Notes under the pieces: generated by a model | Told to the model about the DNA's origin: nothing | Database searches by the model: none | The model's input: the letters and a program-made list of their open reading frames with translations, nothing else | IMG/VR virus record: IMGVR_UViG_3300010935_000101 | Coordinates: 29,068 to 93,067 of that record | Direction: 5' to 3' (one strand) | DNA from: a virus | Length of the DNA stretch: 64,000 bases | Program-made: the position numbers and the translations under genes | In this document: positions 38,895 to 52,251 of the stretch, in pieces | Numbering within the stretch: the stretch's first letter is position 1 | Layout: each line of letters starts with the position of its first letter

Positions 38895-41046
38895 TTGGTT
38901 GACCCTTGTCTTTCTCAGCTAACTTTGTAGCCGCATCAAACTCTTTGTCTAACTCGTGTTCATTTCTTTTTTGTCCTGACACATCTTTTACGAATTCATT
39001 TGCAAGTGCATCAGCTTCTTCTTTTAACTTATCAGCATTAGCAAGTGCTTCCTCCGCTCTACCAAGTGCTTCTTTTGATTTAGCGTTTTTTAGTACTCTG
39101 TCAAATTTATTTTCTTCTGCTCTAGAAACTCTTTCTACAATTCTTGAATCCATTTCTTCTAATTCTTTTCTCGCAATTACTATTTTCAACTTAGCTTCTT
39201 CTAGTGCAAGCATTTGTAATTCCTCTTGAACTGGGTTTGGTTTTGGTTCATAACTCTCTATTGACTTAGCCAATCCAGGTTGTTTCCACAACTTAGCAAT
39301 CTTCGCTCTGTATATCCTTGCCTCAGCAGGATCCATGCTAGCAGCATTTGTTTGTAATAACGTATTTAGTTTGTTAGCAGTATCTTGATCTTTCTCTGGT
39401 GTAGATACATCAATTTTTAAGTCGAATTCTCCGGCCAAGTCATCTCTACGAATAGTAACGAATTCTTCATTAGTTACCCTAACTACTTCTTCTTCACTTA
39501 AGTATGCTTGGTTCATAGCAATTGTAAGTCTTGCCATATCTTTGAATAGCTCACTTAATCTTCTTAGTATACTCAACTCTCTTTGACTTGTAGCATCTAG
39601 TGCTGATCTAACCCCGCCTACGCTATCTCCAAGTGCATTACCTGATATCCCACCAGCAAATGCTTTCGTACCAGTTAGCGACTCAGCATCCGATTGTTGC
39701 CATTGAATCATATTGAATACGCTTGACGGAACTGGAGCAACTGTGTTTTTGTATATTGAATTTTTTGGGTTTAATCCAGCTCTATAATAAACTGTATTAC
39801 CTTTTTCGTATTGTTGTCTAACGGACATATTTGGGAATAGTGTTTCATCTATGAACTCTTGTCCAACTGCTTGTTCACTTGTTATGTCATGCGCAGCTCT
39901 TGTCAATTTACCAATTGATTCTTGATTTTCCCTCAATAACTCAGCATCTGGTTCACCCATTACTTCTTTTTTGATTGGCATGTATTGTGCTATACTGAAT
40001 GGCAACCTTTTGTGTGGGAATGGATTTTCCTCTAATCTAATTAGTATCTCTCCAACCCATGTAGCAACTATTGGCACTAATTCATCATCACCATTAATAT
40101 CCCAATAGCCCCAGTATTCATAGGCTGTTAATTTCTTTCTAGCTTTATCTGTAAATTTAAAATTATTATATGCGCTACTTTTGTGTTCATCATATATAGC
40201 TTTACCATCTTCATCTTTCAGTAATTCCAAGTTGTGATAGACACCAGAAACTTCTCCAGATTCTGCATCCTTGAAGTACTCTTCTTTTTTTAATTCAGCA
40301 ATATTAACATCATATTCATGAATTATGAAATTAGCATCTTCAATATACCCTTCACATGTAGGGTCAATTATTATATTAGCAGTATTACATACTTCGTATT
40401 TTGGTTGGTTTTTTACTATCTTTGGAACTTCAACTTCAACTTCTCGAACCCCAGTTTGCATTGGTTCACCAGAAGCCATCCTTTGTTGGAATTCAGCCAT
40501 AGGCATTTGTCCACTTCTAACTGCCTGCTCCATTAGCATTAACGATTCTTCTGGACTAGCATACACTGGCTCTTCTTGCATTACTTTGACTAATTTTTCT
40601 TCAACTTCCCAACCAGTTTTAGTTATCACAGTACCATCATCAACAACATATCTAACTATGTCATTTATTAATTTAACTTTATTGACTTTAGTAGACCATT
40701 GATAATTTAGCAGCAATTCGTTTTGTTCTGCTGCTTTAACATCTTCCCATGTTCTTGGGTTAATCTCAAACATATCTTCGGTATTTAGGAATGGATCTTC
40801 TAATTTTGGATACTTCCACTCAGCATTTTTTCTAACTACCTTTGGTCTGGCAGTAGACTTACCTGGTCTGGCACTAATTTGTGGCCCACCATCTCTATCT
40901 TCTTCATACTGCAGTAATTTCTTTTTGTAATCTTCATGGAATGATGAGGACCCATCTAAGTCATTTTTGAAATCATTATATGTCGGCTCATTTTCCCACG
41001 TTGTGAGTTTTTTAGCCTCATTAAGTTTTGTTTTTTGTACTTTCAT
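38887..41046 (-). CDS. Portal protein (N4 gp59-like)
   Basis: W.NEPT..DFK.D, RPK.VRK.AEW.YP.L.DPFL, YEYWG, E.NPFPH, SGNALG. Confidence 0.88.
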   Translation of the reverse strand: MKVQKTKLNEAKKLTTWENEPTYNDFKNDLDGSSSFHEDYKKKLLQYEEDRDGGPQISARPGKSTARPKVVRKNAEWKYPKLEDPFLNTEDMFEINPRTWEDVKAAEQNELLLNYQWSTKVNKVKLINDIVRYVVDDGTVITKTGWEVEEKLVKVMQEEPVYASPEESLMLMEQAVRSGQMPMAEFQQRMASGEPMQTGVREVEVEVPKIVKNQPKYEVCNTANIIIDPTCEGYIEDANFIIHEYDVNIAELKKEEYFKDAESGEVSGVYHNLELLKDEDGKAIYDEHKSSAYNNFKFTDKARKKLTAYEYWGYWDINGDDELVPIVATWVGEILIRLEENPFPHKRLPFSIAQYMPIKKEVMGEPDAELLRENQESIGKLTRAAHDITSEQAVGQEFIDETLFPNMSVRQQYEKGNTVYYRAGLNPKNSIYKNTVAPVPSSVFNMIQWQQSDAESLTGTKAFAGGISGNALGDSVGGVRSALDATSQRELSILRRLSELFKDMARLTIAMNQAYLSEEEVVRVTNEEFVTIRRDDLAGEFDLKIDVSTPEKDQDTANKLNTLLQTNAASMDPAEARIYRAKIAKLWKQPGLAKSIESYEPKPNPVQEELQMLALEEAKLKIVIARKELEEMDSRIVERVSRAEENKFDRVLKNAKSKEALGRAEEALANADKLKEEADALANEFVKDVSGQKRNEHELDKEFDAATKLAEKDKGQPNG

Positions 41047-41083
41047 GGTAATCCTCTATTAGTTATTGCTTTATTATATCGTT

Positions 41084-41581
41084 TTAATTCTTAAGTTGCA
41101 CTAAGATAGGTGTTACATATAACATGTAGTTATTAATGAATTCTTCCGGGGTTGCTTTACCAGCAGAACTATTGTACCATTTTTTGTAATACTGTGCCAT
41201 CAATTCCAACTCAATTGGAATAATACTAGGTACTAATTTGTACTTCAATCTAACAAACAACACTGCCAGAAATGGGTTATGCCATATTTCTCTCCATGTT
41301 ATTTTCTTAACATCAATATCCCATGCATCAATGCATCTTTGTCTATCCTTTTCACTAGTTCTATCTACTACATCATTGAACGGCATCTCATCGAATTGTG
41401 CAATGCTTTGTCCGGCACTTGTGGGAGTGGGGTCTTTGTATGTTCCTAAATGGGTTTCTTGTGCTATTGTACCTAGTATCAGTAAATCTGCATTTGCATT
41501 ATTACCATTGCCAAGTACTGTGCATACTTCTTTAACATAATCTAGTAGATGTTCTTTTTTAATTAACCCGTAATAGATCAT
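41084..41581 (-). CDS. Putative endolysin (lysozyme-like fold)
   Basis: TIAQETHLG...AQFD...YYKKWYN; next to membrane/holin genes. Confidence 0.5.
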   Translation of the reverse strand: MIYYGLIKKEHLLDYVKEVCTVLGNGNNANADLLILGTIAQETHLGTYKDPTPTSAGQSIAQFDEMPFNDVVDRTSEKDRQRCIDAWDIDVKKITWREIWHNPFLAVLFVRLKYKLVPSIIPIELELMAQYYKKWYNSSAGKATPEEFINNYMLYVTPILVQLKN

Positions 41582-42027
41582 TTTGTAATCCTTAATTTGA
41601 CCATTGGCAATTCAAAACTGTGTCTCCACCAAGGTGGTGTATAAGTAACTATGTATGTTCTGAAATCCCATTTACCTGGATGGGTGTCATCTGGAATAAG
41701 TACACTTCTACATATATTTTTTAATCCCTTTTTTCTTGGAACATAAACTGTTGGAAAAATAACAGGGGCAACAACAATTTTGTCGTCTTCGTCTGGTTCT
41801 GCTGTTAAAGCTCGACTAATATCCAAATCTACATCTCTAGTATATTCTACTGTTCTGCATAACAGAAATGAAGTTCCTCTTTTAACTACTATTTCACCAT
41901 TTGGATTATGTGTAATAATTATAGGATTTTGTGTAGACAACACAAACGTCCAAAATAAAAGTAGCATAGTAGAGCCAATAAGTATGGCTAACTTATCCGT
42001 GAGTATTTGCTTAAAAATCCTTTTCAT
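41578..42027 (-). CDS. N-terminally anchored membrane protein (lysis block)
   Basis: Single N-terminal TM segment. Confidence 0.55.
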   Translation of the reverse strand: MKRIFKQILTDKLAILIGSTMLLLFWTFVLSTQNPIIITHNPNGEIVVKRGTSFLLCRTVEYTRDVDLDISRALTAEPDEDDKIVVAPVIFPTVYVPRKKGLKNICRSVLIPDDTHPGKWDFRTYIVTYTPPWWRHSFELPMVKLRITK

Positions 42028-42254
42028 TTTGCTGCTACCTCTTGGATAAACCTTACTGCTGCATACCCAAGTACACTCATAAGTGACATAGTTCCAAACC
42101 AGATTATTGCAAAAGTTATAGAAGTTCTAACTTTCTCTTTTCTTTCTTTTCTAACTTTACTTTCTATCATTTCACCCTCTACCCAATAATGATGCTTCTT
42201 ATGCACTTCAAAAGGTATTCTTCCATCTTCATTATCTGGTATGAACTCACTCAT
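42024..42254 (-). CDS. Small membrane protein, possible holin/antiholin
   Basis: One C-terminal TM segment. Confidence 0.5.
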   Translation of the reverse strand: MSEFIPDNEDGRIPFEVHKKHHYWVEGEMIESKVRKERKEKVRTSITFAIIWFGTMSLMSVLGYAAVRFIQEVAAK

Positions 42255-42285
42255 TACTTACCACCCTCACTTAATTTTTTTTAGT

Positions 42286-42294
42286 ATTATACCA
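42286..42294 (-). promoter_or_regulatory. Extended -10 promoter TGGTATAAT
   Basis: Reverse complement of ATTATACCA in intergenic gap. Confidence 0.6.
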
Positions 42295-42302
42295 TATTTT
42301 TA

Positions 42303-42788
42303 CTAGTTAATCCCAATATTTTTGGTATCTACGCCTTTTTCTTTATCTCTTGATCTTAATATAGCCATACCTAGCATAGAACCAAGCAATGCTATAACAT
42401 CTCCTACTCCTAAATCAGGGAATACTGGGAGTGCTGGTATAATAACTCCTGCTTCTACAGAGAATGTTAAATACACTTGATAACACCAAAATCCTGTCAT
42501 TACCAAGGCTTTAGGAACATACATTACAAACAATGATATTACTCCTACCCAGCCGACAGCAGGCCTCCACCCACTTACGAACCAACTGGGGTTCTTAGCT
42601 TCTTCTCTATTTATCTCTAACTGCCCTACCATCAGTTGTACATGAGCATTTAGCTGTGCCAAATCCCCAGTTTGTTTTAATGTCTCTAACTTTAGCAATT
42701 CTTCAGCCTGTTTAGTTGGGTCTGGCCATATTTTTTCTATAGCAATCTTTCCTAAGTCAAACGCAGCTGTTAATGGATCAAAACTCAT
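42303..42788 (-). CDS. Holin (GTA 3TM-type)
   Basis: KIWPDP...EEAKNPSWFVSGWRPAVGWVG...LLGSMLG.A.LRS.DK.KG. Confidence 0.75.
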   Translation of the reverse strand: MSFDPLTAAFDLGKIAIEKIWPDPTKQAEELLKLETLKQTGDLAQLNAHVQLMVGQLEINREEAKNPSWFVSGWRPAVGWVGVISLFVMYVPKALVMTGFWCYQVYLTFSVEAGVIIPALPVFPDLGVGDVIALLGSMLGMAILRSRDKEKGVDTKNIGIN

Positions 42789-42800
42789 AATATCTCCTTA

Positions 42801-43172
42801 TTAATATTTACTCTCATGGGCTTGGCAAACTCTTAAATTATGGCAGATAAAGTCAAACTTTTCACACCATACTCTACCACCGCCATCTATATCATACTTG
42901 TTATATGGAACATGTTCCATAGCTTCAAGTGCACCTTCTGAATAGTCTCCATATTCACAGTTACCACATCTCTTACGTCTTCCCTCTTTTTCACTAACCA
43001 TCATTTTGTCCGCAAAAGTTACCCAGAATCTCTTATTCCCATTTACAGAAACTTCTGCCTCTGCTGGTCCAAGAGTCCAGTCTTTTACAAGTGAACGCAT
43101 TATAACCATATTATCTTTCTTGGTCAACTCTCTTGCTTCTTTGTATCTTCCATTATATTCTACTGTATCCAT
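42801..43172 (-). CDS. Cys-containing hypothetical protein
   Basis: Start moved to ATG 43172 (AAGGAG); CGNC...WCEKFDFIC..RVC. Confidence 0.65.
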   Translation of the reverse strand: MDTVEYNGRYKEARELTKKDNMVIMRSLVKDWTLGPAEAEVSVNGNKRFWVTFADKMMVSEKEGRRKRCGNCEYGDYSEGALEAMEHVPYNKYDIDGGGRVWCEKFDFICHNLRVCQAHESKY

Positions 43173-43173
43173 T

Positions 43174-43422
43174 TTATTCTCCTTCACTTTTAAAGCAGTG
43201 ATTTTGTTCAAACTTTCTAAGTAAGCAACATAAAGCTTTCTCAAACAAGTTAGCTTCGTTCCTTTGAATCTTTCTTCCTATATAACTACTTATTGTTTCA
43301 TCTTGTGATTTGTTCCACCCAACACAACCAATGGCTTGGTCAAAGGATATTACTATCCTCATAACCCTACTCCTCTTAGCTATATCTCTATCAAACTTAC
43401 TAAAGAGTTCTTCTTTTACCAT
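43174..43422 (-). CDS. Conserved tail-region hypothetical protein
   Basis: DQ...DETISS..G...LC..L...NHC pattern. Confidence 0.6.
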   Translation of the reverse strand: MVKEELFSKFDRDIAKRSRVMRIVISFDQAIGCVGWNKSQDETISSYIGRKIQRNEANLFEKALCCLLRKFEQNHCFKSEGE

Positions 43423-44270
43423 ACTATTGCCTTAACTTCATCTACAGTTGTACAAGCATCTACTTGTTTTATAAGTCGTTGAAATTTACCAATTTGACCA
43501 GCATAAAACACAGAGTAAGCATCCGCTTTGGTGATCACTTTATCTATAAGTTGGGATTTAGTTTCACCATTAGCTCTTGAAGCCAGTAACACATCTATAA
43601 AAGGAGTAGCTGCCAAGTTATCTAATAACCAAGCCCTAGCTTCTTTTTCTTGCGTTGTAAAACTAGCAATTTCCCATGAGGCGGTATCTCCTAGAATGCC
43701 ACGCAGCTCCTTATCTTGTTCAGTTTTTAGCCATATCTTCATATCATTCTTAGCATCTATTATGCTTATATTCCAAGCTGTAGTGTAGAAGTAATGGCTT
43801 CTTAAAAAAGGGTACTCAGATAATGTATCTGGGGCATACTTTGTGCCTTTATTATACCTAGTATCTCCATAACCAATATACATGCCTGTTACTGAGTCCA
43901 CCAAGCAGCATACTGCCCATGAGCCCTCATACCATTTTTCATTCTCTCCGGATGGTGCAGTATCAACAACTAAATACTTATCAGTATTATTAAGCTCTCC
44001 TACATAGTTCCCCCCAGCATCAACACAGTGATATAGTAATATAGGTTTTGGCTCAACTACAGCAGCAATAGGAGGAGTGAAACTGTCTATGAATGCTTCT
44101 GCATTTAAAATCTGCTCATCGTTTAATGGTATATCATCCATCATCTTTAGTGTTGGTTCATAGTAAAAATTTACACCTGTAATAAAACTAGGTTTTATTG
44201 CGGTATCACTATAAAAACCAATATCGTTTATTACAGTTATCTTTCCTTCGACATAGGTAAGTACTCTCAT
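43416..44270 (-). CDS. Tail fibre assembly-like protein
   Basis: C-terminal Q..EA.AW..D..A.TP..D.L..R...KA..Y...G..Q......T..EV.AI.W. Confidence 0.65.
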   Translation of the reverse strand: MRVLTYVEGKITVINDIGFYSDTAIKPSFITGVNFYYEPTLKMMDDIPLNDEQILNAEAFIDSFTPPIAAVVEPKPILLYHCVDAGGNYVGELNNTDKYLVVDTAPSGENEKWYEGSWAVCCLVDSVTGMYIGYGDTRYNKGTKYAPDTLSEYPFLRSHYFYTTAWNISIIDAKNDMKIWLKTEQDKELRGILGDTASWEIASFTTQEKEARAWLLDNLAATPFIDVLLASRANGETKSQLIDKVITKADAYSVFYAGQIGKFQRLIKQVDACTTVDEVKAIVW

Positions 44271-46087
44271 TTGTCATCCTTCATATATACAAATTTTAAA
44301 TTATGAAAAGGTATATTTATGGCTTGTATATGGTAAAAAGCATTTTTTGCATGTTTTTCGTAATGGTAAATTCTTGCTTGTTTTGTTGTGAAAAATATAC
44401 TGTTAAATACACCATCTAAATAGCTATCTTTATGCCTATGTATAATGTCTGAAATATCTAAAATAATTTTATCACCATCCACAGACTCGCTCATTTCTAG
44501 GATTTGATTATAATAAATTCCCTCTTCCCATAAATGCTCTTGTTTAGTTCTTTTCTCTTCACCATAAGTTGTTGCAGTATTTCTAAGCATACTGATTTTA
44601 AGCTCATTACCTGAAAGACTATCCTCTTCACAGTTTGCTAAAAAGTATTTTTTATCCATCTCTAATTTAATCTCATCACTGGACTTAATGCCATATATGG
44701 TTTGAAAGCTAAACTCTTGTGGCTCTAGTGGATATACCTCTCCATTCACTATTATCTTAAATATACCACTCTCATAGATAACCTTGAGCTTTTCGTCGTT
44801 ATCGATAATACTTTGTAACTTTTGTTCCTCTGAGTAAAGTTCAGGAGTAATGATATGGTGATCTCTTTTTGGATATACCTCAGTAAATTTTTTTATGTAC
44901 TTTGGGTTATTTGACAATACAAAATCTTTTACATATTCCTCTATCTCCTTAGTTTCCATCATTGGGTATCGTCTAGGGTTATCTCTATAGAGTGCTCTTT
45001 GAACTCCACACGTATAACTTCTATTAAGTCCTGTCTCTTTGCGGACTAACGAGCAACCTTGTTGACAGTATTTAAAGTAAGGGCAGGTAAAACAATCATC
45101 ACTAATCTCAAGAGTGCTCTCATTTTTCTCTATTACTTTTGTTGCATTTTCTTTTATCTTCGAGAAGCCATCCTTAAATATATTTCCATATTTGTACTCT
45201 GGGTCTGGCTGTGTTCTGTGGCAGGGATACACATCTCCATTCTTTTGTAGTATCAATTGGGTTGTTCCACAATTTTTAACATCAGTACAGTAACCACTTT
45301 GAAACTCTTTGAACCAACCATACTTGATGGCTTGCTCATATGGAGTGCCTATAAATTCTTGCTTTATCTTTTGATAAAACTCTACCATCTCGTCCTGTGA
45401 TAGCATTTCTGTGCCCTCTATCTTCTCTTGAAACTTGTCTTCACTTGCTTTAGAGTCATATCCAAACATGAAGTAAAAGTTTTCTATCATATTAAACCCT
45501 ATCACTTCATGCATGTACCTCAAGTCCTTGACGACTTCATCAATCTTCTCTAGGTGTGCTTTGGTAATAACACAAGACAAGCCTTTGCCATACTTATAGT
45601 CTTTTAATAGGGATATGTTCTTCAGTGTTTTTTCGAGTGTTGAATTGCCTTGCTTATCTACTCTATATTTAGCGTGTAGACTAAATGGTAAATCAAAAGA
45701 ACCACTTACTGTTACTTTGTGCTTACTATACAGCGCTTGCAATTTAGCAAAGTTATGTAAGTTTGTTTTAATATGGATATTAGCCATCCGGACAGATCCA
45801 GCAGTCGCCACGTTTCTTTCTAGACTGTTCTCACTTAACTTATTTGTCATATACTCAAACATTTCAGACAAATATTTTTCAGGTATAGTAGATACTTCTG
45901 CTCCATGCAACTGAAATCTAGATATACCATAACCGGCTTTTTCAATCTCTTGTACAGCCTGCTCTAGTTTTGTGGTTATGTCAGTATGTGTATCTTTATT
46001 ATCTGTAAGGCTACCTAAGTAACAATATTTGCAGCCAAAGTTACAGTATTGGTTTGGCACATATATAAGCGCTATATGTTCTTTCAT
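44267..46087 (-). CDS. Radical SAM/SPASM enzyme with long C-terminal extension
   Basis: CNFGCKYC (CxxxCxxC); SPASM C-x5-C...GDVYPC...CFTC-x5-C-x3-C...C. Confidence 0.92.
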   Translation of the reverse strand: MKEHIALIYVPNQYCNFGCKYCYLGSLTDNKDTHTDITTKLEQAVQEIEKAGYGISRFQLHGAEVSTIPEKYLSEMFEYMTNKLSENSLERNVATAGSVRMANIHIKTNLHNFAKLQALYSKHKVTVSGSFDLPFSLHAKYRVDKQGNSTLEKTLKNISLLKDYKYGKGLSCVITKAHLEKIDEVVKDLRYMHEVIGFNMIENFYFMFGYDSKASEDKFQEKIEGTEMLSQDEMVEFYQKIKQEFIGTPYEQAIKYGWFKEFQSGYCTDVKNCGTTQLILQKNGDVYPCHRTQPDPEYKYGNIFKDGFSKIKENATKVIEKNESTLEISDDCFTCPYFKYCQQGCSLVRKETGLNRSYTCGVQRALYRDNPRRYPMMETKEIEEYVKDFVLSNNPKYIKKFTEVYPKRDHHIITPELYSEEQKLQSIIDNDEKLKVIYESGIFKIIVNGEVYPLEPQEFSFQTIYGIKSSDEIKLEMDKKYFLANCEEDSLSGNELKISMLRNTATTYGEEKRTKQEHLWEEGIYYNQILEMSESVDGDKIILDISDIIHRHKDSYLDGVFNSIFFTTKQARIYHYEKHAKNAFYHIQAINIPFHNLKFVYMKDDK

Positions 46088-46686
46088 ATTTTGTCCCCAT
46101 TAAAAATTTCACCAGAATTTCTCAAATCTATTAAAACTTTAAAATACTCATTATCCCAACTCTTTGCCCTATAGGTATATGGAACACTTCCTCCGGGTAC
46201 TTGTCCTAAAACATAATGTAGAAAATCACAAATGACCGTTGCTTTATCGATGTTATTTTGAAGATACAGTTTCGCTTTTGTGAACATCTTCATTCTAATA
46301 GTATTTTTGTCCTCTTTTGCTCTATTGTAGTAACCGTCAATTAATCTGAATGTTTCTTCTAGTGACAAGTAACCATCAGCATGTCTATCATCTTTGTTTT
46401 GTAAAAATCCATTAGTAAAATACTTACTTAATTTTTCTTTGTACTCTGGCTGCCAAGTTCTTTTAACTTCATCACCAATAGGGGACTTACCATCACAAAA
46501 TCTATGAACAGCCAGTCTCATCATCTCTGGCATAATTGAGTTATCTGCTTGTATTACAGATATTATCTTGTTAAGAGTTTGTGGCTTATTCATCTTTCCG
46601 GAGTCCAAGGCCATGTCCCGTCCTTTTTCTAAGGCAGATATAGCTGTTTTTACATCCACCCCATTTATTTTGCTATTTATCCCCAT
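46084..46686 (-). CDS. Hypothetical protein coupled to the radical SAM gene
   Basis: AAGGA RBS; ATGA overlap with rSAM start. Confidence 0.75.
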   Translation of the reverse strand: MGINSKINGVDVKTAISALEKGRDMALDSGKMNKPQTLNKIISVIQADNSIMPEMMRLAVHRFCDGKSPIGDEVKRTWQPEYKEKLSKYFTNGFLQNKDDRHADGYLSLEETFRLIDGYYNRAKEDKNTIRMKMFTKAKLYLQNNIDKATVICDFLHYVLGQVPGGSVPYTYRAKSWDNEYFKVLIDLRNSGEIFNGDKI

Positions 46687-46697
46687 TGTATTTTCCT

Positions 46698-46802
46698 TTA
46701 GTGATTGCTGTTGTTTGTACAGTTAGTTGTTATACACGTACCATATGTTGTGGTTGTATTTACTACATAACTTAAATTCTCTGCTACTGCTACTGTTGTC
46801 AT
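46698..46802 (-). CDS. 34-aa peptide MTTVAVAENLSYVVNTTTTYGTCITTNCTNNSNH (candidate rSAM substrate)
   Basis: Hand-translated; GGAG RBS 7 nt upstream; fills the gap between flanking genes. Confidence 0.65.
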   Translation of the reverse strand: MTTVAVAENLSYVVNTTTTYGTCITTNCTNNSNH

Positions 46803-46805
46803 ATT

Positions 46806-47309
46806 TTATCTCCATTCATATCTATTGTAATATATATCTCTTTTACAGGCTGGGAAAGAATAAGAACATGGACACCCAGAGCAAGATGCACATAGTGCAC
46901 ATGTGCTGTACCTATAAAGTAACCAGTCCTTATTATCTGCTACCCTATTACCATTCGCATAAGCATAACATTGATTTATGTACTGTGCAGCATTAATTGC
47001 GTAGGCATCAGTTGTGAACCACACATCCATCAATTTGCCTAATCTAGAACCATCTGCTGCCTGAAGTACGCCAGCCCCATTAACGAATAGTTCCCCCTTG
47101 TCTGCATACTCAACTATGTCTCCGGCAGCACTAACAGCGTATGCATCCACATTATTATCTACCAGAATTGCACCGCTATGAACAATAGTCCACGTTCCTG
47201 CAATCTTACGATACACTTTTTTAGCTTCCGTCCATACGCTAGCTATATTTCTGTATACCTTTTTAATAGGAGTCCAAACTCCTGCTATTTTTTTATATGT
47301 CTTTGCCAT
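46806..47309 (-). CDS. Tail fibre tip/adhesin-like protein with six-Cys C-terminus
   Basis: Three YxxIAxxWT repeats; CALCASCSGCPCSYSFPAC; start at ATG 47309 via TAATG overlap. Confidence 0.7.
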   Translation of the reverse strand: MAKTYKKIAGVWTPIKKVYRNIASVWTEAKKVYRKIAGTWTIVHSGAILVDNNVDAYAVSAAGDIVEYADKGELFVNGAGVLQAADGSRLGKLMDVWFTTDAYAINAAQYINQCYAYANGNRVADNKDWLLYRYSTCALCASCSGCPCSYSFPACKRDIYYNRYEWR

Positions 47310-48724
47310 TATGTCATGTACCACCAGTCATTATCTACTCCACCACTTGGTGCGGAAACTGAAACACTTATAGTTCCACCTAACACTTTAGTTGTATCTG
47401 CTGCTGTGGCAGTCGTCGCCAACTTACCGGCTAAAGCAGTGTCAACTTCTGTCTTTGTATATGTTGTAGCTTGGTCTGCTTTTAATACATCCTTAGCATC
47501 TATACTAGCTTTAGTATATGTATCTGCTATACTAAATGTACCATAAGCTACTATATCTACTATATCATTTAGATTAGCACCTAAAGTTAAAGTTATGCTT
47601 GTGCCATTAGTAGCTGTAAAGTCTACTGTTGCTTGTAACTTACCACTATTTAAATATACATCTACAAACCCTACATCATATGTAACATTGAATATAGTTT
47701 GTCCAGCTGTTGCAATATAAACTTGCCTCTCTGATGTACCGTTTACTGAACTACCAGCTAATTTCCATATTGCACCATCATATATTTTCATAAGAAATGT
47801 AGTTTCATCAAACCATAAATTACCTAGTACAGGAGTTACTGGTTCTGTTGGTGAACTTTTATATTGTCCTTGAAATGTATTTAAACTATTTAAGGCACTA
47901 GCTGCACTTGCAGCTGTTTCACCTGCTTTGGTTGTAGCTATTCCTGCCTGTGCTGTACTTATAGTAGCATTAGTAAGAGCATTTAATATAGCACTATCAG
48001 TAGGTTGATTAGTACCTATTCCTTTTACTATATCTGCATATAATGCATCTAAGGTTACTTTGTCTGTAAAGATGCTATCTAGCTTAGCTTTATCAGCGTA
48101 TATACTATCTAACTTGGTCTTATCAGCATATAAACTATCTAACTTTATTTTATCAACAAACAAACTGTCCAGAACTGCTTTACTTGCGTATAGACTGTCT
48201 AATGTTAATTTATCAGCGTATAGAGAGTCAAGTTTAATCTTATCAGCATATAATGAGTCTAATGTTGCTTTATCAGTAAATAAAGAATCTAGTTTTGCTT
48301 TATCAGTAAAGATAGAGTCAAAAGTTAATTTATCTGCATATAAACTATCCAATGTAATTTTATCTGCATATAAACTATCCAATGTAATTTTATCTGCATA
48401 TAAACTATCCAATGTAATTTTATCTGCGTATAAGCTATCTAATGTAGCTTTGTCTGCATATAAGCTTTGCAATACAGCAGACATGGCTTCTAGTACCAAT
48501 AACTGATCTAGAGAATTAATGGTAGCACCAACATTAGAGTACATAGTCTGTATAGAACCATATATACCAGCACCTAATCTTGGGGCATTATCACTATCAG
48601 TTGTTTTACTTACTATGTCATGATAAATACCGTCTGTATATACATCACCTGGTGCACCACTTCCTCTAATTTCCCGTAAAATTTCAATAAAATCTTTATT
48701 TCCGGCCATATCTATACTCCCCAA
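47309..48724 (-). CDS. Tail fibre protein with decad repeats
   Basis: 14 x DKxxLDSLYA; GNLWFD..T..MKIYDG; ATAGQT.F.V.Y..G.VDVYLN domains. Confidence 0.8.
   Translation of the reverse strand: MGSIDMAGNKDFIEILREIRGSGAPGDVYTDGIYHDIVSKTTDSDNAPRLGAGIYGSIQTMYSNVGATINSLDQLLVLEAMSAVLQSLYADKATLDSLYADKITLDSLYADKITLDSLYADKITLDSLYADKLTFDSIFTDKAKLDSLFTDKATLDSLYADKIKLDSLYADKLTLDSLYASKAVLDSLFVDKIKLDSLYADKTKLDSIYADKAKLDSIFTDKVTLDALYADIVKGIGTNQPTDSAILNALTNATISTAQAGIATTKAGETAASAASALNSLNTFQGQYKSSPTEPVTPVLGNLWFDETTFLMKIYDGAIWKLAGSSVNGTSERQVYIATAGQTIFNVTYDVGFVDVYLNSGKLQATVDFTATNGTSITLTLGANLNDIVDIVAYGTFSIADTYTKASIDAKDVLKADQATTYTKTEVDTALAGKLATTATAADTTKVLGGTISVSVSAPSGGVDNDWWYMT
48035..48454 (-). repeat. 14 x 30-nt coding tandem repeat
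   Basis: Three exact copies at 48331-48420. Confidence 0.95.
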
Positions 48725-49170
48725 ACATGCATTGTATCATAACAGCTATCTTTATCGAACTTCAGTGTTTCAGCATATGCCCAATCACTTAGTGTTCTAA
48801 CCACTAGTTCCGATGCTATATGTATTATACTAACTTCATACTGTGTCTTAGCTTCAGCGTCTACTTGAGCATCAGTCCACAAAGGATTTGCAAACATTAT
48901 TGTGTTAACTATTCCTTGGTAATTTATATAGTCCCAATAAGTCTCTTTTTCTAATTGGCTCATTTTAGCTAAACACTCATTACTATCAGCATCTCTCAGC
49001 ACCATTATAAAGTGCTCTGTGAATACTACTTTAGTATTTGCACCATCCACAGTATCTTTGAATATGAACGGCTTATTATTTGATTTGAATAGATTCTTAG
49101 CCTCTTGTGTAGAAGTCGTTACAGTTGTTGTAATAGCAGCATTAAGAGGGTCAACTAACAATTTAATCAT
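48712..49170 (-). CDS. Hypothetical structural-block protein
   Basis: Start moved to ATG 49170 (AAGGAG). Confidence 0.65.
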   Translation of the reverse strand: MIKLLVDPLNAAITTTVTTSTQEAKNLFKSNNKPFIFKDTVDGANTKVVFTEHFIMVLRDADSNECLAKMSQLEKETYWDYINYQGIVNTIMFANPLWTDAQVDAEAKTQYEVSIIHIASELVVRTLSDWAYAETLKFDKDSCYDTMHVWGV

Positions 49171-49573
49171 TTGTGACTCCTTCTGTTGAACCATATGTTT
49201 CTACAAATTCATCAACTTGTGCATTATAGCTTCTAATTATATCATCAGCAGTACCTTTATGCATTCCCATTTTCTTTTCTGATATATAACTAGCAATCAA
49301 ACTTGCAGCAGCATACCCTAATTCGTGGTCTATATCCAATAAGTCTGTATCACTAGTAGGTAACTCTGGTCTTCTAACCAAGAAATTGCCTCTACCAAGT
49401 CTTTGGATAACAGCACTCTTATCTTCTGTTTGTAAATTTAGCACTTGACATTTCTCAGCTATATAGTTATATGCCATTCCAAGTAATGCTTTTATAGAGT
49501 CATCACTTTCTGGCAATGGAAAATCACTACTAAGCAAAGCTTTTGTAAGTGTCTTTAATTCAATATACATCAT
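49163..49573 (-). CDS. Head-tail adaptor-like protein (N4 gp67 position)
   Basis: Synteny downstream of terminase. Confidence 0.5.
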   Translation of the reverse strand: MMYIELKTLTKALLSSDFPLPESDDSIKALLGMAYNYIAEKCQVLNLQTEDKSAVIQRLGRGNFLVRRPELPTSDTDLLDIDHELGYAAASLIASYISEKKMGMHKGTADDIIRSYNAQVDEFVETYGSTEGVTND

Positions 49574-49631
49574 TTGACTTTCCTACTAATTAGTTTTTCT
49601 TAATTTTAACTAAAATAAACTTGCATATAGC

Positions 49632-51488
49632 TTAGTAACTATCATATGCACTAATTTCATTTGAAGTCTTTGCTTCATAGTAGTGTAATCCATCTGGAGT
49701 TGTCATTTTATTCAATGGAGCTTCATATGTTGGATAGTACACATGCATAGTCACAACCGCCTGGGTTATCAAGTCTGGACCATCATCAGATCTAGTAAAC
49801 GTACTGTGTGTAGCACCTTTTATCTGTGCAATAAATTCAACTATATCCGGAGTATTTTTGAGATGCTCTGGAAACCACATCTTTTGATTCAACAACACTT
49901 GACTAGCAATTCTGAATCTCTCATGTTTGTCGATACCAGTATTCTTACTTAACAGTCCCTTTCTTGTGCTATCTAATTGACCTTTTTGTTTAGCAAAGCT
50001 GTAGAATGTTCCTTGATCTCTCATTAGTTTTTCCAATGCATTGACATGTGCACTTTGATTACCATCTACTTCAACACCAATTTCTACATTTTTACCTCTA
50101 CGTTTCCACTTAGCAGCTTCCTCTAATGTTAAAGCATACTGAGTATCCATTCCCATTCTCCGCAAACTCAAGTTCAACAGGAACCAGTCTTCATTACTAC
50201 TTACTGCCCAAGTTGCAATACCACTAAAGTTTGATTTCTCACCACTCGTCGTTGTATAATCCGTTGTTATATACACATTATAAGCTTCTATGTTCTTCTC
50301 TATTACTTTAGTATCACAAAACTGTAAACAATTATCTGGAATTAATCTTTCACTACCACTGGTTAGTCTAAGCATACGCTCTTGCAAGAATAACTTTAAC
50401 TCTTTAGCTTTTTTAGCACGTTTTAATAAGCCAATTATAGACACCCTAGGATGCATTGCTTCCCAACTACTATGTATTGCAGTTGCTTTCAAGTTTGGAT
50501 CCTCAGCATCAAATGTTTTGGCCATTGGTATGATTATTGGTGTGAATGAACCATTAAGTATTGCTCTAGTATTAACATCACCATAGTGGAATGGTGTAAA
50601 ATACAACAGTACCCTGCCTTTTCCTCCACCTTTTAGCGCATTCACAGCATCGGAATGTAACACAGTATGTAAGTTATCACTCATTACTTTTGAGTATGCT
50701 GCAGCCGTATTTAGTATTGTGTCATCAAATAATAACGCACAGGGTCTTCTTTCACCATATCTACTACCACGAATACCAGTGTTCAATCCTTGGTATCTTA
50801 TTAGGAATGACCTATCTTTCTTTTGTACTTTACCTGTGGGGTCTTTTCTAATGAACTCACTTTCTGTCTCTGTAAATCGCATATCCTCGAAGTAATCATT
50901 CAAGTATACACTTTCTTCACACATTGCTTTTACTGCCAGTGCATTAACTCTGGCACCACCTTTACTTGATGCAGCTATTAGTAAATAAAACCACACTTTA
51001 CCAATCCCATTTGGCAACTTCCCTTTTAACGCACTGTATACGCCAAAAAATGATATACCAACTGTTGATTTTGCTAAACCACGACTCGCCATAAATCCTA
51101 ATGCATTAATATCTATCTCTATTGTCTTACATATCTCTTCACTGTATGGAAACATCATTGGATCTGTTATATAACCCAATAACATATCCACCATAAAATA
51201 GTGAGCTATTGGAGTGTCGAACTCGAAGTCTCCACCTTGTACTAATCTCATTAATATGAAGAACTCGAACGCATCCTTGCTTGGAGTGTATCTTGGGAAT
51301 GTTGGGTCATAACTATCCAATGCACCATCTAAGTCGAACTCTGCATTTTCCAGTAGCTCTACAGCTTCTACAGCAGCTTGTCTCTTAGCTGCTTCATCAA
51401 CGACATTCCTTACCATGTCCTCACCGTAGAGTTCAATCAGCTCAGCAAGCTCTTCTCGTTTCTGTTCTTCAGTTAGTTCAATCTTCAT
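49632..51488 (-). CDS. terL: Terminase large subunit (N4 gp68-like)
   Basis: Y.PS..AFEF, ASRGLAKST, GIRG.RYGE.RP...LFDD, YITTDY, DDGPD. Confidence 0.9.
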   Translation of the reverse strand: MKIELTEEQKREELAELIELYGEDMVRNVVDEAAKRQAAVEAVELLENAEFDLDGALDSYDPTFPRYTPSKDAFEFFILMRLVQGGDFEFDTPIAHYFMVDMLLGYITDPMMFPYSEEICKTIEIDINALGFMASRGLAKSTVGISFFGVYSALKGKLPNGIGKVWFYLLIAASSKGGARVNALAVKAMCEESVYLNDYFEDMRFTETESEFIRKDPTGKVQKKDRSFLIRYQGLNTGIRGSRYGERRPCALLFDDTILNTAAAYSKVMSDNLHTVLHSDAVNALKGGGKGRVLLYFTPFHYGDVNTRAILNGSFTPIIIPMAKTFDAEDPNLKATAIHSSWEAMHPRVSIIGLLKRAKKAKELKLFLQERMLRLTSGSERLIPDNCLQFCDTKVIEKNIEAYNVYITTDYTTTSGEKSNFSGIATWAVSSNEDWFLLNLSLRRMGMDTQYALTLEEAAKWKRRGKNVEIGVEVDGNQSAHVNALEKLMRDQGTFYSFAKQKGQLDSTRKGLLSKNTGIDKHERFRIASQVLLNQKMWFPEHLKNTPDIVEFIAQIKGATHSTFTRSDDGPDLITQAVVTMHVYYPTYEAPLNKMTTPDGLHYYEAKTSNEISAYDSY

Positions 51489-52251
51489 CGTCCACTACCT
51501 CAGCATCAGTAACTATACCGATTTTTTGTATCTTTCTAATATCCCCACCATTTGCCATCTGTTTTACCATAATAGCAGCCATATTTTCAACTTGATCTGC
51601 CAAATTTTGTTGAGCATTCTTAGTTTCTGTATCTAACCCATGTGTTAAACTAATCGACATAGTCTCTGGGACTTTTACTATCTCTCTTAGCGCTATTATA
51701 GCATTCAGCTGTACAGTGGCACTGGCAGGACCATCTGCAGCTTGGCCATTTGACAATTGCAATAATTTTTCAACTATCTGGTGATTCAATGGAGCGTAGG
51801 TTATTGAATCTGCAATTTGTATATTCTCCATCACCGTTCTTGGAATTTTTGTTCCTGCATATTGACTAGCGAATGAACTTGGATCACCATTTCTCTCAAG
51901 AATCTCCTGAGCTTTTTCTGGGAATGTGACCATCCATGCTTTTGTTTGGGTCATTTTCGGGGTTAAACTCAATGTAACAAACTGAATACCCTTCAGTAGT
52001 TGCTTCATACCAACCCCAGGTCCTAATAGATGCAGATGACTCATTAACCTTTCTTCCATAAGTCCCCTGTGTACTGAGGATTCATCAATTAATCTATTCA
52101 CCAGTTCCACAGTTTGTTCAGTTACTTTTACCCTACTGCCCTTTGGGAGGAAATATTTTAACTTCTCAGTAGTTATCTTTTGCTCATCCATAGCCAGGTC
52201 CTCCCAATCTTGTGGAGCTGGTAAGTTTTTCATCTCATCTTTTAGTCCCAT
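51478..52251 (-). CDS. N4 gp69-like protein (possible terminase small subunit)
   Basis: Overlaps terL start; Q.KAW..TFP motif; synteny. Confidence 0.6.
   Translation of the reverse strand: MGLKDEMKNLPAPQDWEDLAMDEQKITTEKLKYFLPKGSRVKVTEQTVELVNRLIDESSVHRGLMEERLMSHLHLLGPGVGMKQLLKGIQFVTLSLTPKMTQTKAWMVTFPEKAQEILERNGDPSSFASQYAGTKIPRTVMENIQIADSITYAPLNHQIVEKLLQLSNGQAADGPASATVQLNAIIALREIVKVPETMSISLTHGLDTETKNAQQNLADQVENMAAIMVKQMANGGDIRKIQKIGIVTDAEVVDDED

Follow-up and report, generated by a model that had tools for sequence, protein, structure and literature searches.

A radical SAM/SPASM enzyme of an undescribed family in a phage tail-fibre operon and its recurring neighbours with asparagine-rich C-termini

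What does a radical S-adenosylmethionine (SAM) enzyme do inside a phage tail-fibre operon? The question is raised by a window of 64,000 nt, part of the 96.7-kb IMG/VR virus record IMGVR_UViG_3300010935_000101, in which a 606-aa enzyme with a radical SAM core and a SPASM domain is encoded downstream of a tail fibre gene (all positions below are those of this window unless a locus is named). The radical SAM/SPASM maturases known so far serve secreted peptides and a small number of enzymes, sulfatases and quinohemoproteins among them. We know of none that acts on a phage structural protein or on asparagine runs, and our literature search turned up no work that connects radical SAM enzymes with poly-Asn or Asn-rich tails or with tail fibres. 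Our analyses point, as the probable answer, to a maturase of an undescribed family that would act on C-terminal tails of the form [Ser/Thr/Cys]-Asn-Asn..., here most likely on a 34-aa peptide encoded two genes upstream.

The initial annotation had described an overlap-coupled order of tail fibre, six-Cys tip protein, 34-aa peptide, 200-aa protein, enzyme and 284-aa protein, and the open reading frame (ORF) listing bears it out (Table 1). All genes of this region lie on the minus strand. Their junctions either overlap by 1-7 nt or are spaced by 11 nt with an AGGA; the ATG of the tip protein overlaps the fibre stop by 1 nt. No terminator-like sites were found on the minus strand within 41000-51600. 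The block is situated between two head genes, the large-terminase gene (phrog_38) on one side and the portal gene (phrog_1216) on the other.

The catalytic motifs reported earlier are present as well. The enzyme carries a CX3CX2C motif (Cys15, Cys19 and Cys22), eight SPASM cysteines (Cys267, 273, 289, 332, 335, 341, 345 and 360) and a long extra part of about 235 residues beyond the SPASM part. The cluster cysteines are invariant in 41 relatives, except for Cys360, which is nearly invariant. The general models Radical_SAM PF04055 (30.0 bits versus a cut-off of 29.5; 31.8 bits in the genome search), SPASM PF13186 (25 versus 21.5) and TIGR04085 (48.7 versus 27) recognise the protein, which is the sole radical SAM enzyme found in a search of the 96.7-kb record. 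All 25 listed equivalog and subfamily maturase models scored far below cut-off, and only the generic SPASM domain model passed. The best NCBIfam match was DynA (E 5e-25, 88.3 bits versus a cut-off of 450); the models TIGR03942 and NF010321 for the anaerobic sulfatase-maturating enzyme (anSME) reached 82.8 bits versus 349.45 and 60 versus 441. The N-terminal 372 residues were modelled with AlphaFold2 at a predicted local distance difference test (pLDDT) score of 91.7. Their nearest solved structures are those of anSME (PDB 4K36-4K39, template modelling score 0.71-0.74), followed by ChlB, CteB and SuiB, and the profile match to anSME covers nearly the full length (E 5e-21). The core is nearest to the peptide- or protein-modifying SPASM enzymes anSME, DynA, DarE and PapB.

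At full length, the enzyme matches phrog_1802 (E 1.5e-49, residues 4-601). A search of 5.8 billion clusters gave at least 581 relatives, counted as clusters at 90% identity. The best 120 stem from phage-like contigs and several bacterial phyla; nearly all of them are about 600 aa long and align end to end (99% of length) at 35-70% identity. Among public phage records, megablast found no near relative and tblastn found only CAM-P21 at full length, and a single-protein scan of viral contigs found none. We located no literature or curated model for the phrog_1802 enzymes, and no NCBIfam model for either enzyme or partners. The enzyme is a member of a compact, undescribed family of about 600 aa that combines an anSME-like core with a C-terminal beta-sandwich exclusive to the family. 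Membership in a defence system was also considered and rejected, as PADLOC gave only a weak viperin match (E 5e-5) confined to the radical SAM motif.

The C-terminal 245 residues were modelled as helices and a beta-sandwich (pLDDT 88.7). In the 41-member alignment, Asn494, Tyr508, Gly509, Glu511, Arg513, Lys515, His518, Asn562, His575, Tyr576, Asn582, Tyr585, His586 and Asn591 are invariant, and the window enzyme keeps the invariant residues of the family. Foldseek against PDB and AFDB clusters and a wide VIA-align search returned only generic Ig-like or beta-sandwich matches (best Z 6.7). A profile of the domain found 105 matches among 1.84 billion representatives: the long ones are proteins of about 600 aa matched at about residues 355-600, the short ones resemble truncated gene calls, and none places the domain in another architecture. 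Judged from these searches, the domain is universal in and exclusive to the family.

Either this extension or the 200-aa protein had been suggested as the substrate-recognition element. Of the 200-aa protein, only the last 80 or so residues are conserved, and only within the window lineage; because the C-terminal domain is universal in and exclusive to the family, we infer that it is the better candidate for recognising the tail. It is a beta-sandwich and not a recognition element (RRE) of the type used for peptides synthesized by ribosomes and modified after translation (RiPPs), for which the extension was to be checked. An N-terminal RRE has too little space, since the CX3CX2C motif begins at residue 15. 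On both counts the enzyme differs from RRE-dependent maturases such as CteB, SuiB and PqqE with PqqD.

What the enzyme might act on is suggested by its neighbours across the family. We surveyed 50 loci with full-length family members, drawn from viral contigs (12), genomes (16), metagenomes (13) and exact look-ups (9) and named below by L numbers. The screen asked for ORFs whose last ten residues contain an Asn run of at least three or at least five Asn in all. At 39 of the 50 loci, such an ORF lies on the same strand as the enzyme gene, adjacent to it or one gene removed, and a further seven loci are Asn-tailed by inspection: five with Campylobacter-type fibres ending ...GNNF or ...GNNS (L012, L021, L022, L023 and L040), L004 with a fibre ORF running off the contig, and L009 with a peptide ending ...NNGNNS. 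The remaining four comprise three loci cut by contig ends (L035, L038 and L117) and one with only a looser Asn-rich ORF (L106). As a control, we applied the screen to 130 loci of other radical SAM/SPASM enzymes returned by the same scans, where two of 4445 ORFs (of at least 60 aa) passed, each of them on the strand opposite to the enzyme. Mixed AAC and AAT codons encode the Asn runs in loci of 58-70% GC, and together with the control loci this led us to reject AT bias, low complexity or replication slippage as their origin.

The partners take two forms. In bacteria, the partner is a small protein of 120-150 aa with 9-17 Asn (for example ...GGGSNNNNNNNNNNNG) and without any Cys. In phages, it is the C-terminus of a tail fibre with 2-5 Asn, as in CAM-P21 (...STNNNNY), L004 (...GSNNNSNNSNNSNNNNA) and L003 (...QSNNNW). 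A maximum-likelihood tree separates two sides of the family, each with 100/100 support, corresponding to bacterial long tails versus phage-type short tails; the window enzyme falls in the phage-type clade as sister to L009, then L186. The Asn-tailed fibre C-termini belong to unrelated phages and include the annotated tail fibre of CAM-P21, a 'phage tail protein' of C. coli prophages and collagen-like fibres. Full-length enzyme homologues directly follow fibre genes in CAM-P21, in C. coli and C. jejuni prophages and in several marine or metagenomic phages, and we regard the window gene as peptide- or protein-maturase-like and tied to the tail-fibre module. The proposed linkage to tail genes is supported by the neighbourhood survey; the Cys-rich peptide expected beside the enzyme is not, the shared partner feature being a [Ser/Thr/Cys]-Asn-Asn... 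tail instead. In some Campylobacter-type prophage fibres the tail is minimal (...GNNF or ...GNNS), so that two Asn close to the C-terminus may be enough for recognition.

The survey also yielded several observations on individual loci. The fibre genes of L012, L021, L022, L023 and L040 end about 660 nt before the enzyme, and in two of these loci, L023 and L040, the enzyme gene appears to be broken into ORFs of 153 and 431 aa and may be inactivated. In public assemblies, the 344-aa 'phage tail protein' with an Asn tail from C. coli prophages (L014-L018) is very common, one exact sequence occurring on 764 contigs. At three bacterial loci, a predicted membrane protein of 260-290 aa is encoded beside the enzyme and the Asn-tailed protein (L006 7159-7998, L007 6999-7778 and L008 6840-7712), and the two high-GC loci have a SelO gene immediately upstream on the opposite strand.

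Across all partners, the tail and the Ser, Thr or Cys preceding it are the only common sequence features. In 37 of 43 tails, the residue immediately preceding the first Asn run is one of these three, and in all 43 one of them is no more than three residues away; the partner bodies are mutually unrelated. This bears on an unlikely alternative, in which the Asn tail is a docking tag, comparable to a follower sequence, for the C-terminal domain, and the chemistry takes place at another site, in the body of the tagged protein or in an associated partner (the tip protein or a chaperone, for example). It is common among RiPP enzymes that one segment is bound and a different one modified, the C-terminal domain resembles a binding module, and a tail that varies from 2 to 17 Asn and in its last residue would suit a binding tag more than a precise reaction site. 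The unrelated bodies, however, offer no other shared site, and we favour the tail itself as the substrate.

In the window, the candidate substrate is the 34-aa peptide, which ends ...NCTNNSNH and whose gene carries a GGAG some 8 nt ahead of the start codon ATG. The 96.7-kb genome contains five ORFs of at least 25 aa with an Asn-rich C-terminus, and this is the sole plausible gene among them. The three closest relatives, L009, L188 and L186, whose enzymes are 70%, 66% and 53% identical, share the layout of the window: a tip protein (150-172 aa), a peptide (34-44 aa), one or two small proteins and the enzyme. The peptide gene has its own Shine-Dalgarno sequence in each of the four phages. Glu8, Asn9, Tyr12, Cys28, Asn30, Asn31 and Asn33 are invariant in all four peptides, which end C-[STC]-N-N-[GS]-N-x.

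The peptide ORF is also in frame with the ORF of the tip protein in all four phages, with one to four stop codons and the ribosome-binding site between them; in the window, a TAA and one codon separate the two. Stop-codon readthrough from tip to peptide was considered and rejected, in view of the TAA followed by A in the window, two consecutive stops in L009, four in-frame stops in L186 and the separate Shine-Dalgarno sequences. The simplest reading of the arrangement is that it would be the trace of a gene split from an ancestral fibre-tip tail, which fits because other phages keep the tail fused to the fibre. The window thus apparently adds a phage variant of the pairing, with the Asn tail as a separate peptide gene split off from the tip protein.

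The same comparison speaks against the C-terminus of the 172-aa tip protein as the substrate. This protein, directly upstream in the operon, has six Cys within 19 residues near its C-terminus (CALCASCSGCPCSYSFPAC), and it had been proposed that the enzyme installs thioether cross-links there, as in sactipeptides and ranthipeptides. The invariant core of the tip protein is shared with its homologues in L009, L188 and L186. The six-Cys cluster is found only in the window phage and is absent from the three relatives, which retain both the enzyme and the Asn-tailed peptide, making it an improbable substrate. The bacterial partners, moreover, are entirely without Cys. PapB, SCIFF and CteB-type maturases do occur among the weak NCBIfam and PDB matches, but the named thioether-maturase models all score far below cut-off. 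Thioether chemistry at fibre tips is made conceivable by the related phages L010 and L011, where collagen-like fibres end ...NCNCCNNN or ...NCNCDCCNNN and a second, shorter radical SAM enzyme of 380-381 aa directly follows the family enzyme (L010 8811-9956, L011 7414-8556). Its best NCBIfam match, far below cut-off, is the ranthipeptide maturase PapB. The window, however, has only one radical SAM enzyme. A second fibre gene with such a Cys/Asn-rich end lies 5 kb downstream in L011.

Very unlikely, finally, is a cargo gene (a moron, an auxiliary metabolic gene or a counter-defence gene) that acts on a host molecule and merely sits at a permissive site beside unrelated Asn tails: fibre and lysis modules are common moron sites and the weak viperin match would agree, but the pairing turns up repeatedly, both in bacteria (outside prophages) and in phages of unrelated types, is essentially absent in the controls, and in the window involves genes overlap-coupled inside the fibre operon.

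If the tail is the substrate, maturation could proceed as follows. The C-terminal beta-sandwich would dock the Asn tail without an RRE, and the radical SAM cluster would cleave SAM to form the 5'-deoxyadenosyl radical. This radical would abstract a hydrogen at or next to the [Ser/Thr/Cys]-Asn-Asn junction, and the two auxiliary clusters would accept the second electron, giving a two-electron oxidation. This would leave either a dehydrogenated residue or a cross-link, which here could plausibly join Cys28 to a carbon of Asn. We read the peptide as a fibre-tip tail that has become separate; it would be modified in the cytoplasm and probably join the fibre tip. Its operon position, the fibre-end tails of other phages and the trace of an in-frame fusion suggest that the modified product may be part of the virion. 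A role in stabilising a very small fibre-tip domain or in protecting the C-terminus is speculative.

Comparison with characterised maturases narrows the possible chemistry. anSME is the closest relative of the first 365 residues in both structure and sequence, and it shares with the window enzyme the radical SAM cluster with two auxiliary clusters, the lack of an RRE and a protein target without a leader peptide (here predicted). It abstracts the C-beta hydrogen of Ser or Cys; in the family tails, a Ser, Thr or Cys stands before the Asn run. The window enzyme differs from it by the additional conserved C-terminal domain and by its low score against the anSME model, and Pfam and PHROG scans of the window ORFs found no sulfatase neighbour; nor is a C/S-x-P/A-x-R motif nearby, the partners ending in Asn runs. 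In anSME, the third Cys of auxiliary cluster I is followed by an Asp, presumably Asp277, the proposed catalytic base. As this 'PCD' Asp aligns with a His in the window enzyme and with a Pro in the family consensus, formylglycine-type oxidation of the Ser, Thr or Cys is a weakened alternative.

DynA and DarE (NF041298 and NF038005), the maturases of dynobactin and darobactin, are likewise SPASM enzymes and cross-link short peptides. The Trp-to-Asn C-beta bond of dynobactin is a precedent for radical chemistry on Asn, and many phage tails of the family end in Asn-Asn plus an aromatic residue (Tyr, Trp or Phe). Their products, however, are secreted antibiotics of small size, encoded in dedicated operons together with exporters, whereas the candidate substrates here are fibre ends or proteins of 120-150 aa, and the bacterial tails of the family end in Gly or Arg without an aromatic residue. 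Thioether maturases of the NxxcB, PapB and CteB types belong to the same SPASM superfamily, and NxxcB links a Cys sulfur to the C-beta of Asn. The order in the window lineage is C-x-N-N and not N-x-x-C, and the family differs from all three types in its lack of an RRE, its Cys-free bacterial partners and scores far below every cut-off. A Cys-to-Asn thioether is nevertheless plausible in the window lineage, because an invariant Cys stands two residues before an invariant Asn-Asn; epimerisation is another possible reaction. The thioether or formylglycine chemistry considered at the outset finds no support in the models, the enzyme being far below the cut-offs of every named maturase. Within its own family, the window phage has the same enzyme of about 600 aa and the same Asn-tail partner rule, and differs by a short, impure tail (CTNNSNH) on a stand-alone 34-aa peptide in the fibre operon.

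Several points weigh against the proposed maturation of Asn tails. The tail as substrate is inferred from adjacency, which is no proof of an enzyme-substrate pair. The window tail is a weak form of the motif, with four Asn in its last eight residues and no pure run, and it is carried by a free peptide and not by the fibre. Across phage lineages, the partner proteins encoded between substrate and enzyme do not share homology. The anSME Asp is replaced by His in the window enzyme ('PCH') and by Pro in the family consensus (C-P-R-G-Q), so that anSME chemistry is not simply transferable. H-fibres of the CJIE1 prophage, when co-expressed in heterologous hosts with only their downstream chaperone and without any radical SAM enzyme, bind their receptor MOMP and are able to kill cells (PMC7882524, PMC11464564). 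If these H-fibres are Asn-tailed and their prophages carry the enzyme, this would argue that the modification is dispensable for receptor binding. The RM1221 gene after the chaperone, CJE0229, is annotated as a putative phospholipase A2 in one paper, and the RM1221 prophage may lack the family enzyme.

As a class, radical SAM/SPASM enzymes are familiar. What appears to be new is the proposed kind of substrate, the additional domain and the setting among phage fibres. We tentatively extend the proposal to the possibility that unrelated phage types covalently modify fibre-tip C-termini of the [Ser/Thr/Cys]-Asn-Asn... type with a dedicated radical SAM enzyme, the window phage using a split-off 34-aa tip peptide; we hold this with less confidence than the maturase assignment itself. 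If true, it would be the first radical SAM maturation of a virion structural protein and a new post-translational modification on Asn-rich tails, common to phages and a widespread bacterial system. It would bear on how fibre tips are stabilised or tuned, and recombinant fibres produced without the enzyme in phage engineering would miss the modification. A true enzyme-substrate pair would also mean a new protein modification with a very simple recognition element, down to a C-terminal G-N-N-F, which may offer a chemistry for C-terminal tagging. CAM-P21 and the C. coli prophages can be cultivated, and the 34-aa peptide would serve well as a minimal substrate.

Table 1 Features of the fibre and enzyme region and of the corresponding tip and peptide regions (window positions unless a locus is named).
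Feature	Position	Strand	Basis or remark
Tail fibre, 471 aa	47309-48724	minus	ORF and PHROG tail-fibre families
Fibre-tip protein, ORF of 172 aa	46806-47324	minus	167 aa from the likely ATG at 47309
34-aa peptide, MTTVAVAENLSYVVNTTTTYGTCITTNCTNNSNH	46698-46802	minus	Proposed substrate; own GGAG ribosome-binding site
200-aa protein	46084-46686	minus	Without family match
Radical SAM/SPASM enzyme, 606 aa	44267-46087	minus	4-nt overlaps at both ends
Radical SAM core and SPASM domain of the enzyme (about residues 1-365)	44993-46087	minus	Pfam, TIGR04085, AlphaFold2 model
Family-specific C-terminal domain of the enzyme (about residues 370-606)	44270-44980	minus	Conservation, AlphaFold2 model
284-aa protein	43416-44270	minus	Start overlaps the enzyme stop by 4 nt
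147-aa ORF	42801-43244		Between fibre cassette and holin; without family match
Holin	42303-42788		Pfam GTA_holin_3TM, phrog_3427
Tip and peptide region, window	46698-47324		In-frame pair
Tip and peptide region, L009	820-1413		In-frame pair
Tip and peptide region, L188	533-1108		In-frame pair
Tip and peptide region, L186	343-981		In-frame pair

The fibre matches the PHROG tail-fibre families phrog_21412 (E 8e-12), 22284 and 18345. It contains some 20 copies of a 9-residue tandem repeat (LDSLYADKx) as well as a C-terminal domain, and ends ...DNDWWYMT, without an Asn tail. On the opposite strand of the repeat DNA there is a long repetitive ORF (48060-48506), which is probably spurious. The tip protein shows a weak, low-confidence structural resemblance to Gp38-type adhesins.

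The 200-aa protein has no match in Pfam, PHROG, NCBIfam or PADLOC. Its last 80 or so residues are homologous to proteins of 93-94 aa in L009 and L188 (BLASTP E 4e-7), which adjoin the enzyme gene directly upstream; by this comparison, the protein is lineage-specific and conserved only in that part. A chaperone-like family occupies the same slot in CAM-P21, L003, L004 and L187. A CJE0230-type fibre chaperone and the 208-aa family of L010 and L011 were both ruled out as its identity, there being no similarity by BLASTP or hhalign.

Downstream of the enzyme, the 284-aa protein had been labelled a fibre assembly protein. The label is unconfirmed, as there is no Pfam match and the PHROG matches are to families of unknown function. 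Language-model features (Atlas) place the protein near the Caudo_TAP and HI1402_helical clusters, which is a lead only. DUF4376 and Caudo_TAP were rejected, with no Pfam match even at E = 10, as was membership in the Campylobacter chaperone family, to which hhalign found no relation. A homologue occupies the same position after the radical SAM genes of L010, and the product is possibly a fibre assembly or chaperone-type protein. In the ORF listing, the 284-aa gene is followed by an 82-aa and the 147-aa ORF and then by the holin gene. The C-terminal half of the 147-aa product is Cys-rich (CGNCEYGDY...WCEKFDFICHNLRVCQAH) and may bind a metal.

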